Shown here piece after piece: positions 1,657 to 5,158 of a DNA stretch of 5,159 nucleotides (within the stretch, counting starts at the first letter, position 1; each line of letters starts with the position of its first letter). A program made the position numbers and the translations under genes. Source of the DNA: a virus (lineage: Duplodnaviria; Heunggongvirae; Uroviricota; Caudoviricetes); the IMG/VR virus record IMGVR_UViG_2698536403_000005, positions 1 through 5,159 of that record. One strand, written 5' to 3'. Under the pieces are notes generated by a model that saw nothing but the letters and a program-made list of their open reading frames with translations, was not told where the DNA came from and ran no database searches.

Positions 1657-1700
1657 TTGATGACCGACAGGGTGGCATTGTTAGAATAAGACTTATTCTT
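1657..1700 (+). promoter_or_regulatory. Candidate sigma70 promoter with extended -10 (TGtTAGAAT, 1679-1687) and TTGATG -35-like hexamer (1657-1662), overlapping the palindrome GAATAAGaCTTATTC (1684-1698)
   Basis: Motifs read directly from the sequence; spacing of -35 to -10 is ~19 nt, which is suboptimal. Sits 25-30 nt upstream of the TonB-like gene start at 1714. Prediction only. Confidence 0.25.
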
Positions 1701-1713
1701 ATCTGTGCCGGGA

Positions 1714-2046
1714 ATGAAAATGAAAAGAAATCTTCCGTTAATTATTTTGTTGTCTTCTCTGGTTATGGGCTGTACGCAACATAAAACAGATATGCCCCGA
1801 CAGTTGGTTAAGGCATTACCACAATATCCGGCCTATGCAGCGGCAAATTATATAAAGGGACGGGTTGATGTGAAGTTTGATATTGGTGCTGATGGTACTG
1901 TCACCCGAATTGAGTTTATCCGTTCAGAGCCGCACCATCTGTTTGATGAGCAGGTTGTAAAGGCGATGGCAAAATGGCGATTTGAGAAGGACAGGCCGCG
2001 TAAAGGCGTGAAGAAAACGTTTATCTTTAGTCCTTCTGCACCCTGA
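1714..2046 (+). CDS. Lipoprotein consisting essentially of a TonB C-terminal domain (TonB_C-like)
   Basis: N-terminus MKMKRNLPLIILLSSLVMGC has a signal peptide plus lipobox (Cys followed by Thr, no Asp at +2). The rest, PQYPAYAAANYIKGRVDVKFDIGADGTVTRIEFIRSEPHHLFDEQVVKAMAKWRFEKDRP, aligns closely with the E. coli TonB C-terminal domain as I recall it ([60 protein letters not shown]). No proline-rich spacer and no N-terminal ExbBD-interacting TM anchor. Start could be 1714 or 1720; stop TGA 2044-2046. Confidence 0.8.
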   Translation: MKMKRNLPLIILLSSLVMGCTQHKTDMPRQLVKALPQYPAYAAANYIKGRVDVKFDIGADGTVTRIEFIRSEPHHLFDEQVVKAMAKWRFEKDRPRKGVKKTFIFSPSAP

Positions 2047-2177: not shown

Positions 2178-2378
2178 TCATTTCTCGTTATTTGTCATGC
2201 TGGCCGGGCGCAGATGCGTTGCATCTGTTGACAGCCTTCTTCTGCAGGCTTCAATAACCCACGCTGAAAAGTTTCCTGAACCTTTCAGATCAAGAGCGAT
2301 GTTAATTTGTTCAATCATCTGGTTTGGAAATCGGATGTTGCGGGTTGTTGTTCTGCGGGTTCTGTTCTTTGATGACAT
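2178..2378 (-). CDS. Small putative DNA-binding protein (ribbon-helix-helix / Arc-MetJ-like fold suspected), 66 aa
   Basis: Minus-strand ATG (complement of 2376-2378) preceded by GGGGA at appropriate spacing. Translation MSSKNRTRRTTTRNIRFPNQMIEQINIALDLKGSGNFSAWVIEACRRRL… has a basic N-terminal tail, then a beta-strand-like IRFP segment and two helices in the pattern of RHH proteins. Family assignment is from pattern only. Confidence 0.5.
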   Translation of the reverse strand: MSSKNRTRRTTTRNIRFPNQMIEQINIALDLKGSGNFSAWVIEACRRRLSTDATHLRPASMTNNEK

Positions 2379-4449: not shown

Positions 4450-4639
4450 ACTACAGGCGCTGCGTCAGGCGCGCCTTGATTTATTAACCGGTAAACGGGT
4501 GGTGTCTGTCCAGAAAGATGGTCGCAGAATTGAATATACGGCGGCTTCTCTGGATGAGCTTAACCGGGCGATCAATGATGCGGAGTCGGTACTGGGGACA
4601 ACCCGACGTCGCCGTCGTCCGCTGGGAGTGAGGTTATGA
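4433..4639 (+). CDS. W: gpW-like head completion protein
   Basis: MVTVAELQALRQARLDLLTGKRVVSVQKDGRRIEYTAASLDELNRAINDAE…TTRRRRRP matches lambda W (…[38 protein letters not shown]…QRRRGP). ATG 4433 preceded by GGAGGA; the start overlaps the end of A and the stop overlaps the B start (ATGA at 4636-4639), as in lambda. Confidence 0.85.
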   Translation: MVTVAELQALRQARLDLLTGKRVVSVQKDGRRIEYTAASLDELNRAINDAESVLGTTRRRRRPLGVRL

Positions 4640-4857
4640 AACGAACGCCTGTCCTGATTGATGTGAACGGCGTTCCGCTTCGTGAGAGTCTCAGCTACAA
4701 CGGGGGCGGCGCAGGATTTGGCGGGCAAATGGCGGAGTGGTTGCCACCGGCGCAGAGTGCCGATGCGGCCCTGCTATGCGCGGGTTTTCTTTTGCGCGCT
4801 CGGGCGCGAGATGGGGGCAGCAAGTCTTTCGGTACCACAACAGCAGGTACAGCTTGA
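4636..4857 (+). pseudogene. B: Portal protein (gpB) remnant: ~47 N-terminal codons homologous to portal, then frameshifted junk to stop
   Basis: MKRTPVLIDVNGVPLRESLSYNGGGAGFGGQMAEWLPPAQSADAALL matches lambda B N-terminus (…SLREYAGYHGGGSGFGGQLRSWNPPSESVDAALL…); after ~4773 the frame no longer resembles portal and stops at 4857. Lambda portal is ~533 aa. Confidence 0.75.
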
Positions 4858-5158
4858 TGCTCCCGGAATGCTGGCTGAAACGGACGAGTACATGGCCGGA
4901 GGTAAACGACCGGCCCGTGTTTACCGGGTGGTGAACGGTATTGCGGTACTGCCGGTGAGCGGCACGCTGGTGCACCGGCTGGGGGGGATGCGGCCATTTT
5001 CCGGAATGACTGGCTATGACGGCATTGTCGCCTGTCTTCAGCAGGCAATGGCAGATAGCCAGGTGCGGGGCATACTGCTGGACATTGACAGTCCGGGCGG
5101 GCAGGCCGCCGGCGCGTTTGACTGCGCTGACATGATTTACCGCCTCCGTCAGCAGAAG
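4775..5158 (+). pseudogene. C: Head protease/scaffold gpC homologue (peptidase S49-like) lacking first ~25 codons; runs off the window end
   Basis: In the frame starting at 4775: YARVFFCAL…RVYRVVNGIAVLPVSGTLVHRLGGMRPFSGMTGYDGIVACLQQAMADSQVRGILLDIDSPGGQAAGAFDCADMIYRLRQQK, collinear with lambda C from residue ~26 (AYARVFFCALAGQ…SYQVMNGIAVLPVSGTLVSRTRALQPYSGMTGYNGIIARLQQAASDPMVDGILLDMDTPGGMVAGAFDCADIIARVRD). This frame is not in the supplied ORF track, which appears to omit ORFs with no stop inside the window. Confidence 0.75.

Follow-up and report, generated by a model that had tools for sequence, protein, structure and literature searches.

The open reading frame and its surroundings

The window, by which we mean the whole 5,159-nt stretch of viral DNA that was analyzed, carries an intact ORF on the plus strand that ends at 2046 and has possible starts at 1705, 1714, and 1720 (ORF list). 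The features that bear on this gene are as follows.

881-1066: the true Rz1 (PF06085), embedded in Rz
1660-1687, plus strand: candidate sigma-70 promoter, ATGACC, 16 nt, TAGAAT with a TG extension (consensus scan, 9/12, weak)
1710-1713, plus strand: ribosome-binding site GGGA (from the sequence; aligns with AGGA of phage 21)
1720-2046, plus strand: coding sequence of a predicted lipoprotein-tethered TonB C-terminal-domain protein, 108 aa plus stop (ORF list)
1720-1773, plus strand: predicted lipoprotein signal peptide MKRNLPLIILLSSLVMG and lipobox Cys18, codon 1771-1773 (from the sequence)
1774-1794, plus strand: short tether TQHKTDM, from Cys18 to the first conserved domain residue (alignments)
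1795-2031, plus strand: TonB_C domain, residues 26-104, equivalent to E. coli TonB 153-231 (Pfam, NCBIfam, PDB alignment, AF2, Foldseek)

The original prediction began the gene at ATG 1714, which is probably 6 nt too early. In the alignment with phage 21, 1720 is the only conserved start and the codon corresponding to 1714 is ATA. ATG 1720 has the GGGA ribosome-binding site 6 nt upstream and is also the start chosen by PGAP (108 aa), and the aligned AGGA of phage 21 was annotated as a ribosome-binding site by curators too. The gene has long been annotated and is hence not new as a gene: WP_000828070.1, named "TonB family protein" by PGAP, is the CDS under a 100%-identical DNA match in E. coli, and other existing annotations read "TonB C-terminal domain protein" (phage 21) and "partial tonB-like membrane protein ... 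CP-933N". In agreement with the earlier view that no characterized exclusion system of this type is known, we found no functional study of a stand-alone TonB C-terminal-domain lipoprotein in the searchable literature. The CDS is 100% identical in 27 viral loci, with hundreds of identical copies among viral contigs, and comparison with the 71%-identical phage 21 allele gave a dN/dS of 0.12 at a dS of about 1.5. The gene is under strong purifying selection, which together with the hundreds of identical copies among viral contigs indicates that 1720-2046 is no chance ORF. The best complete E. coli genome covered 91% of the window at 96.6% identity.

The gene had also been described as apparently having its own promoter, but the candidate for one is weak. 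We found one weak extended -10 match, and the five promoter-like sites in the region are not above the 3.4 ± 1.9 found in shuffled sequences. The candidate -10 is partly kept in phage 21 (TGTCAGAAT), the -35 is not kept, and no terminator was found downstream of the gene, which may be just a late-operon gene. We rejected regulation by Fur or iron, since the upstream region had no Fur-box match and the inverted repeat of 8 bp that spans the -10 (1683-1699) stems from a window-specific insertion that is absent in phage 21.

The prophage in the window is defective, having lost cos-Nu1-5'A and most of the portal gene, and its TonB_C gene is intact. As originally stated, the gene belongs to a lambdoid prophage and follows its lysis genes. 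The slot behind the lysis cassette is the same across phages with unrelated endolysins, spanins, and terminases, and in phage 21 and lambda it is that of the lysogenic-conversion lipoprotein gene bor. Its composition is moron-like: GC is 0.39-0.475 in sliding windows spanning 1601-2100, compared with 0.49-0.56 in the windows just before them (1201-1700) and 0.52-0.58 for the terminase region. Like a moron, the gene thus differs in GC from the flanking phage genes, and it is present or absent between otherwise related phages. The gene is not purely a prophage gene, as homologues lie on IncF plasmids and in housekeeping chromosomal neighborhoods of Serratia, Pantoea, and Raoultella.

A TonB C-terminal domain behind a lipoprotein signal

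The N terminus, MKRNLPLIILLSSLVMG followed by C, fits a PROSITE PS51257-type lipobox pattern and consists of a positive n-region (MKRN), a hydrophobic h-region (LPLIILLSS), and the lipobox LVMGC with Thr at +2. Across loci at 33-100% identity, 33 distinct ORFs of the family fit the same pattern, and their +2 residue is Thr, Ser, or Ala and never Asp. A Serratia-like phage subgroup (L114-L119) has LNAC followed by V instead and was missed by the strict pattern. Since Thr at +2 means that there is no Asp inner-membrane retention signal, we infer from the E. coli +2 rule that the protein is probably lipidated by Lgt, LspA, and Lnt and sorted to the outer membrane in a Lol-dependent manner. The linker between Cys18 and the TonB_C domain has only 7 residues, giving a mature protein of about 91 aa. 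Residues 9-34, the tether included, have pLDDT values below 50 in the AF2 model and are predicted to be disordered, and residues 19-40, which also include the tether, evolve fastest (omega 0.26 vs 0.08 for the core).

The remainder of the protein is a TonB C-terminal domain (CTD) by several lines of evidence. The profile search gave a significant match to Pfam TonB_C PF03544 (E=5.5e-15, 56 bits vs a cut-off of 24.6) and a match to TIGR01352 tonB_Cterm (56.5 bits vs a cut-off of 27.1). Against the PDB, phmmer returned the E. coli and Salmonella TonB CTDs at E=3e-16 to 2e-15, and its alignment of query positions 28-106 to TonB 153-231 is without gaps, bearing out the residue-by-residue correspondence that had been noted. 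The structure prediction led to the same assignment. The AF2 model has domain pLDDT values of 83-94 and the topology a1-b1-b2-a2-b3 (H36-42, E47-55, E60-70, H76-84, E94-103), and its best Foldseek matches are the TonB CTDs 1U07, 2GRX_C, and 2GSK_B with target-normalized TM-scores of 0.74-0.84; 2GRX and 2GSK are receptor-bound TonB structures. The domain comprises the PxYP motif followed by a1, b1, b2, a2, and b3, the strand that in TonB pairs with TonB boxes. With the N-terminal segment predicted to be disordered, the b3 edge is left free. No significant match was found among the BFVD viral structures, and the TonB_C-type fold is rare among catalogued viral proteins, a rarity that has no bearing on function.

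At the residue level, P34-x-Y36-P37 aligns to P161-x-Y163-P164 of TonB, and the family alignment has invariant P, Y, G, F, and W columns in common with TonB: P161, Y163, and the structural aromatics F202 and W213 are invariant, with P164 and F230 nearly so. Known receptor-contact residues of TonB are replaced in the window protein (R158K, Q160L, and R166Y) and are also variable between alleles; the target could therefore have shifted. Compared with the E. coli and Salmonella TonB CTDs (PDB 1U07, 1XX3, 2GRX chain C, 2GSK chain B, and 8RD6), the protein has the same Pfam domain and fold at 36-42% identity, with the PxYP motif and the aromatic core conserved. Unlike TonB, the window protein has a lipoprotein signal peptide, and its family has motifs of its own (YAAAN, SEPxHLFD, and KWRFE).

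The protein is not a TonB, since it lacks the membrane anchor and the Pro-rich spacer. Residues 1-18 of the 108 are a predicted cleavable lipoprotein signal, and the N-terminal transmembrane anchor of TonB (SHLS/His20 region), the Pro-rich region, and the link to ExbB/ExbD are all absent. Among the TonB equivalog models (NCBIfam PRK10819), the best match reached 73 bits, far under the cut-off of 315, and was confined to the last ~80 profile positions. The predicted architecture, a lipoprotein signal followed directly by a stand-alone TonB C-terminal domain without anchor or spacer, was thus recovered.

Distribution and stand-alone TolA domains

Of 5426 complete E. coli genomes, 417 have one and 1225 the other of the two alleles compared above, so that the gene is present in roughly a quarter to a third of them. 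Among phage records, only 15 of 50,697 carry it. Related loci were searched for with an alignment of eight family sequences; the Klebsiella-type query P0029 had no match in viral contigs. The window-type allele occurs in Stx1a-converting phages. Every phage record with the phage-21-type allele also has sitABCD, which encodes a TonB-independent Fe/Mn importer. This association is only partial, as ~19 sit-positive phage records are without the TonB_C gene and the Stx1a-type carriers are without sit; shared ancestry could explain it, and we did not take sitABCD as evidence of a compensating partner.

A second set of genes has the same design. Proteins annotated as "cell envelope integrity protein TolA" consist of a signal peptide or lipobox and, of the other envelope energy transducer, TolA, the C-terminal domain alone, and they occur on the same kinds of mobile element as the window family, sometimes in one operon with a TonB_C gene. 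In ~380 Klebsiella ColRNAI plasmid records, a lipoprotein TolA C-terminal domain (TolA_C) and an exported TonB_C form an overlapping operon, and one IncF plasmid has both lipoprotein-TolA_C and lipoprotein-TonB_C. The lambdoid phage mEp460_ev081 has two lipoprotein-TolA_C genes, a pair with matches in 1339 E. coli genomes, of which 776 cover at least 80% of the pair's length. These proteins differ from the window family in having TolA domain III (PF06519) rather than TonB_C, and they would be expected to interact with TolB, Pal, group A colicins, and filamentous-phage g3p, not with TonB boxes. For the plasmid operon of TolA_C and TonB_C there is hardly another explanation than a common function at the Ton/Tol import hubs, and this pairing on mobile elements favors a decoy that competes for Ton/Tol-dependent importers.

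A candidate decoy and its alternatives

Based on these results, we consider it about an even chance (roughly 50%) that the lipoprotein is a decoy that blunts the TonB-dependent entry of phages and colicins. A monomeric TonB C-terminal domain would be displayed directly beneath the TonB-dependent transporters, where it would pair with the TonB boxes of ligand-loaded FhuA, BtuB, FepA, CirA, and others, and possibly also with those of incoming group B colicins. Having retained the fold of TonB, its PxYP motif, and an unobstructed b3 edge, the protein should be able to pair with TonB boxes. Because the protein has no link to ExbB/ExbD, such binding would be unproductive, and TonB, which is scarce in the cell, would face a competitor that reduces import through TonB-dependent routes. 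A lysogen would thereby be partly protected against TonB-requiring phages of the T1/phi80 type and against TonB-dependent colicins and microcins, to the advantage of its prophage or plasmid as well, and would pay with a reduced uptake of siderophores and B12.

There is experimental precedent for the premise of the original prediction that exported periplasmic fragments of TonB are dominant-negative for transport. As described in papers citing Howard, Herrmann, Stratilo & Braun (2001, J Bacteriol 183:5885), TonB-dependent transport is inhibited by exported TonB 33-239, 103-239, and 122-239, and a TonB-box pentapeptide is described as lowering phi80 infection and colicin killing. As far as they are described, the fragments of Howard et al. 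are, like the window protein, exported C-terminal portions of TonB uncoupled from ExbBD. However, they are laboratory constructs, soluble, overexpressed, and longer (33-239 to 122-239), whereas the window protein is natural, shorter (~TonB 145-235), predicted to be tethered to the outer membrane, and diverged.

Phage lipoproteins provide a second comparison. Cor (phi80, N15, HK022, and mEp167) and Llp (T5) are small phage lipoproteins in the inner leaflet of the outer membrane, from where they act on a TonB-dependent transporter at its periplasmic face, an established form of superinfection exclusion. The window protein resembles them in type, but Cor and Llp are specific for FhuA and allosteric on its plug and loops, while a TonB_C decoy would be generic for all TonB boxes. 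The Pfam and PHROG searches gave no match to the Cor or Llp families and the fold is that of TonB_C, hence the proteins are unrelated. Bor of lambda and phage 21 (Iss-like) is likewise a small lipoprotein encoded between Rz/Rz1 and cos, and it is the immediate neighbor in phage 21; it differs in its unrelated sequence, its opposite strand, and its proposed function in serum resistance.

Several observations bear on the decoy reading from the other side. No PADLOC defense model matched, and the homologues in housekeeping contexts of Serratia, Pantoea, and Raoultella suggest a cellular role apart from phage defense. TonB-dependent transporters far outnumber TonB, so a decoy acting by sequestration alone would need high expression. 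We know of no obvious requirement of phage 21 for a TonB-dependent receptor that would call for self-exclusion.

Those housekeeping-context homologues on non-prophage chromosomes lend themselves to a different account, which we regard as unlikely. Here, unproductive TonB-box binding would serve the cell's physiology by restraining or modulating TonB-dependent uptake and signaling, and protection from phages and colicins would not be the selected function. The protein might, for instance, limit iron or heme import, retune the Fur regulon or FecA-type surface signaling, or affect the Fur-controlled stx1. The sitABCD genes in every phage record with the phage-21-type allele and the window-type allele in Stx1a-converting phages point in this direction. 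However, the link to sit is the partial one described above, there is no upstream Fur box and the palindrome over the -10 is specific to the window, and iron physiology fails to explain the pairing with TolA_C on plasmids.

Slightly less likely still is that the TonB_C fold binds peptidoglycan or outer-membrane proteins with no involvement of TonB boxes, the protein being an envelope-tethering or virulence lipoprotein that stabilizes the envelope or alters serum resistance or vesiculation, like the neighboring moron Bor. Contacts of the TonB CTD with peptidoglycan, Lpp, and OmpA have been reported. The gene and bor have in common the moron slot and a lipoprotein product, the fold also occurs in TolA domain III, which binds other partners (Foldseek ranks 17-27), and R158, Q160, and R166 are not conserved. 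Yet the PxYP motif and the b3 strand are retained, the closest relatives in sequence and structure are bona fide TonB CTDs (36-42% identity), and the Pfam search of the protein found no peptidoglycan-binding domain.

We give little credence to the role that the PHROG label implies, that of a spanin-like or accessory lysis protein needed late in lytic growth. The match to PHROG 1267, "Rz-like spanin", is full length (E=1.9e-42), and in many phages the gene is co-oriented with and directly downstream of the lysis genes and encodes, like those of o-spanins, a lipoprotein. Nonetheless, a complete Rz (PF03245, E=5e-50) is already present in the window, with its embedded Rz1 lipoprotein (PF06085, E=1.5e-19), and the TonB_C ORF, which begins ~590 nt past the end of Rz, matched neither Rz1 nor LysC. 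One related locus (L117) has a separate LysC/Rz1-type o-spanin ahead of its TonB_C gene, in phage 21 the opposite-strand bor lies between Rz/Rz1 and the gene, and the plasmid and chromosomal homologues have no lysis genes nearby. O-spanins are short and proline-rich, whereas the window protein is a folded TonB_C domain. We rejected o-spanin identity on these grounds, and the PHROG label looks like an annotation by position. Lastly, an inert relic of a captured host tonB fragment, as early annotations ("partial tonB-like" or "TonB fragment") might suggest, is effectively refuted by the selection analysis (omega 0.12 with a dS of about 1.5), by the acquired and conserved lipoprotein signal and family-specific motifs, and by the occurrence of the gene in more than 1,200 genomes and on mobile elements of several types.

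The decoy reading extends to the TolA proteins. We tentatively propose, at somewhat less than even odds, that mobile elements of Enterobacterales share an unrecognized class of "transducer-decoy" immunity genes encoding exported stand-alone TonB or TolA C-terminal domains. Their carriers would be lambdoid and other temperate phages, IncF plasmids, and small ColRNAI plasmids, and the products, often anchored to the outer membrane by lipid, would compete for the TonB-box and TolA-binding epitopes on which colicins, microcins, and phages depend. The result would be a broad, receptor-independent tolerance paid for in nutrient uptake. The window gene would represent the TonB arm of such a class, with the Klebsiella tolA_C-tonB_C operon as the two-armed form.

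If the decoy reading is correct, about a quarter to a third of E. coli genomes would carry a natural dominant-negative TonB fragment, as would hundreds of Klebsiella plasmids, with a parallel TolA family besides. This would amount to a generic defense, tied to no single receptor, against TonB- or Tol-dependent phages, colicins, and microcins. It would bear on the host range of phages in therapy (T1-, phi80-, and H8-like), on bacteriocin-based competition in the gut, on the uptake of siderophore-conjugated antibiotics such as cefiderocol through TonB-dependent transporters, and on the iron physiology of lysogens, those of Stx1 phages included. The database label of PHROG 1267 would be corrected, and a single 108-aa gene would offer a simple system for probing TonB-box engagement in vivo.

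TonB-like domain and its place in the prophage

The 5.2-kb window holds the lysis-to-head junction of a lambda-like prophage, with these features:

1-363, 3' part of a phage lysozyme gene (PF00959)
658-1128, Rz (PF03245, E=5e-50)
881-1066, Rz1, embedded in Rz (PF06085)
1134-1376, 80-aa ORF with no Pfam or PADLOC match; 74 aa of it is a PGAP hypothetical protein
1720-2046, plus strand, TonB_C lipoprotein ORF (108 aa)
2178-2378, minus strand, YlcI/YnfO (DUF3950) gene
from 2800, lambda-type terminase gpA, 5'-truncated
3' of terminase gpA, gpW and then a portal remnant

The original observation that the ORF aligns residue by residue with the TonB C-terminal domain is borne out by profile and sequence searches, which gave matches to Pfam TonB_C (E=5.5e-15) and TIGR01352 (56.5 bits) and a gapless alignment to residues 153-231 of E. 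coli/Salmonella TonB in PDB chains 1U07, 2GSK_B, 2GRX_C, and 8RD6 (E~1e-16, 36-41% identity). Structure prediction, proposed as a check, agreed: the AF2 model is disordered at the N-terminus and then folds with confidence as a1-b1-b2-a2-b3 (pLDDT 83-94 in this domain), and the PDB entries closest to it are TonB C-terminal domains, among them those in complex with FhuA and BtuB. Full-length TonB equivalog models score far under threshold and match only over their last ~80 positions, and the protein has neither a membrane anchor nor a proline-rich spacer. Its N-terminus, MKRNLPLIILLSSLVMG-C, fits the pattern of a lipoprotein signal, in line with the anchorless lipoprotein first proposed. The start, placed earlier at 1714, moves to the conserved ATG at 1720, which has GGGA 6 nt upstream, is the PGAP start, and is kept in phage 21, where the codon at 1714 is ATA.

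Set against L003, an intact relative, the window is missing Nu1 with cos-distal DNA and the 5' end of A (L003 5380-6325), and its portal gene is short by ~1.5 kb (L003 8264-9764); the prophage is therefore defective, yet the TonB_C ORF is intact. In place of the lost cos-distal region, Nu1, and terminase A 5' end lies ~206 nt of unrelated AT-rich DNA (2632-2837), and at the 4768-4775 junction the start of the portal gene runs directly into sequence of the protease gene. A 264-nt segment (1128-1391) between Rz and the TonB_C upstream region, which holds the 80-aa ORF, is present in some relatives (such as L002) and absent from others (such as L003). At 2533-2547 (palindrome to 2549), ATGATAATCATTATC is identical to the final 15 positions of the 19-bp Fur-box consensus, with 0 such matches expected in shuffles. 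The match sits a short way upstream of cosQ/cosN and shares bases with a promoter-like site at 2513-2540; lambda has a similar sequence.

An autonomous promoter, also part of the original prediction, is a weak candidate here: we found one extended -10 match upstream, partly conserved in phage 21, a count of promoter-like sites near the gene not above that in shuffles, and no terminator for the gene. The candidate -10 is overlapped by a perfect 8-bp inverted repeat, AGAATAAG/CTTATTCT (1683-1699), which comes from a window-type-specific insertion absent from phage 21.

Proposed action at TonB-dependent transporters

The most likely mechanism, to which we assign a probability of about one half, is that of a TonB-box decoy competing with cellular TonB. 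If expressed in the lysogen, the protein would, after export and lipidation, reside in the inner leaflet of the outer membrane, going by the E. coli +2 rule, as there is no Asp at +2. Between Cys18 and the PxYP motif, ~16 disordered residues would give the domain enough reach to meet TonB-dependent transporters at their periplasmic face, and the TonB box would there pair with b3 as an additional strand, in the manner of 2GRX and 2GSK. Without ExbB/ExbD coupling such binding would be unproductive and would compete with cellular TonB. The limits of the mature protein (~TonB 145-235) resemble those of the monomeric, FhuA-binding TonB-92/96 fragments. TonB R158, Q160, and R166 are K, L, and Y in the window protein, and the alleles of phage 21 and Klebsiella have yet other residues there, so binding specificity may have shifted relative to TonB; Leu at the Q160 position is a known suppressor allele of TonB-box mutations.

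Citing papers state that exported TonB 33-239, 103-239, and 122-239 inhibit TonB-dependent transport and that a TonB-box pentapeptide lowers phi80 infection and colicin killing. Phage outer membrane lipoproteins acting at the periplasmic face of FhuA, namely Cor and Llp, are an established exclusion strategy. If the decoy mechanism is true, the gene would encode a lipoprotein for lysogenic conversion or exclusion whose targets are TonB-dependent transporters, by a dominant-negative principle known only from engineered constructs. The hypothesis is concrete and cheap to test, and the gene is very common.

Gene family, neighborhoods, and other explanations

The gene itself is not new, having been annotated as 'TonB family protein', 'TonB C-terminal domain protein' (curated phage 21 record), and 'partial tonB-like membrane protein ... 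CP-933N'. In the full-text literature searchable without subscription, we found no functional study and no mention of it as an exclusion or tolerance factor, and PADLOC has no model for it. In an exhaustive HMMER search, the nearest relatives outside E. coli were other ~110-aa lipobox proteins (41-49% identity), followed by enterobacterial TonB C-terminal domains (38-42%). The family shares the motifs YPxYAxAN, SEPxHLFD, and KWRFE, and has the invariant PxYP motif in common with TonB, along with structural Gly, Phe, and Trp residues. The phage-21-type allele of E. coli (70% identity to the window protein) also turned up on a 418-bp contig assigned to the actinobacterium Modestobacter excelsi, where the assembly was most likely contaminated.

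Synteny comparison confirmed the position after the lysis genes that was first noted. In phage 21 the order is S-R-Rz/Rz1, bor (opposite strand), a small ORF, the TonB_C gene, two small ORFs, and cosQ; the gene likewise lies between lysis cassette and terminase in Klebsiella phage ST13-OXA48phi12.4, a prophage in a 270-kb Salmonella plasmid, and IMG/VR contigs. These carriers differ in endolysin (GH19 or lysozyme), spanins (DUF2514 or Rz/LysC), and terminase (GpA- or Terminase_3-type). In the window, the GC content of the gene region is below that of its flanks. Downstream of its side tail fibre gene, phage 21 (OL657228.1) also carries sitABCD (21967-25416), which encodes an ABC importer of Fe/Mn that does not depend on TonB, as do all sequenced phages with the phage-21-type allele. 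The importer might make up for impaired siderophore uptake, but this is only a lead because ~19 other sit+ phage records lack TonB_C and Stx1a-type TonB_C carriers lack sit.

The family is not confined to prophages. Copies lie between a CxxCxxCC-domain gene and dsbB-nhaB, downstream of minC, in Serratia grimesii; near fliS and an alpha-amylase gene in Pantoea species; beside genes for a beta-galactosidase and a LacI-family regulator in Raoultella and Klebsiella; and, in Klebsiella and Pantoea, on IncF plasmids. The homologues on chromosomes point to a role in the cell, which could be the same molecular act serving as a brake on uptake; we regard such a brake as unlikely, though it is the strongest competitor to the decoy. 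An envelope-tethering or virulence role, like that of Bor, seems slightly less probable still. A DUF1440 membrane-protein gene lies beside the chromosomal Raoultella copy (L085, 6738-7301) and another a few kb from the gene in ST13-OXA48phi12.4 (L104, 1277-1903), either by coincidence or through co-transfer.

A spanin or lysis role is largely excluded. PHROG 1267 (phrog_1267), essentially the lipoprotein-TonB_C family, matches the protein over its full length (E=1.9e-42) and is annotated 'Rz-like spanin', category 'lysis'; since Rz/Rz1 are already present in the window and the protein folds as a TonB_C domain, we rejected this identity, and the label looks to have been assigned by genomic position.

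An inert relic is the least probable explanation of all and is likewise largely excluded, given the dN/dS, wide spread, and conserved lipobox. Against the 71%-identical allele of phage 21, a classical lambdoid phage, dN/dS was 0.12 (dS ~1.5), with 0.08 for the domain core and 0.26 for the tether plus N-terminal segment. The window-type allele occurs in 417 of 5426 complete E. coli genomes, the phage-21-type allele in 1225, and the gene in 219 IMG/VR contigs. All 33 distinct locus ORFs, down to 33% identity, have a lipobox and a non-Asp +2 residue (T/S/A); a Serratia-like subgroup (LNAC-V) is missed by the strict lipobox pattern. By these sequence measures, lipoprotein-TonB_C is a real, selected gene family.

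Parallel TolA C-terminal domain genes

An unexpected finding with a bearing on function concerns TolA. The C-terminal domains of TonB and TolA have in common that they are periplasmic hubs hijacked by group B and group A colicins, respectively, and by several phages. Stand-alone TolA_C genes occur in 750 plasmid records. For instance, the Pantoea dispersa IncFIB plasmid NZ_CP045217.1 (L122) encodes a 144-aa lipoprotein (LLITAC-S) made up of the TolA C-terminal domain (PF06519, E=5e-24). K. pneumoniae has mobilizable ColRNAI plasmids of 10-12 kb in which the gene for a TolA_C lipoprotein (LLLTAC-K) runs 4 nt into the start of a TonB_C gene whose product has a non-lipoprotein signal peptide (PF03544, E=9e-11; 35% identical to the window protein). 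This overlapping pair is found in ~380 plasmid records, and lambdoid phage mEp460_ev081 carries two adjacent TolA_C genes with matches in 1339 of 5426 E. coli genomes, on chromosomes and plasmids, 776 of them over at least 80% of the pair length.

NZ_CP033403.1 (K. pneumoniae ColRNAI plasmid, L124), 1191-1924, overlapping two-gene operon of lipoprotein TolA_C (123 aa) and exported TonB_C (121 aa)
LR597641.1 (phage mEp460_ev081, L123), 4489-4917 and 5068-5463, pair of neighboring lipoprotein-TolA_C genes, flanked by the Q antiterminator gene and the lysis genes

Taken together, the Pantoea IncF, Klebsiella ColRNAI, and mEp460_ev081 cases indicate that exported C-terminal domains from each of the two envelope energy transducers recur on mobile elements, sometimes in one operon, and the pairing suggests a broader class beyond the window gene. 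L122 carries both lipoprotein-TolA_C (676-1110) and lipoprotein-TonB_C (6001-6336). Its TonB_C protein, WP_032416808.1, is the same as on the Klebsiella IncF plasmid L120, and on both plasmids the gene is followed by one for a 213-aa lipoprotein without a Pfam family.
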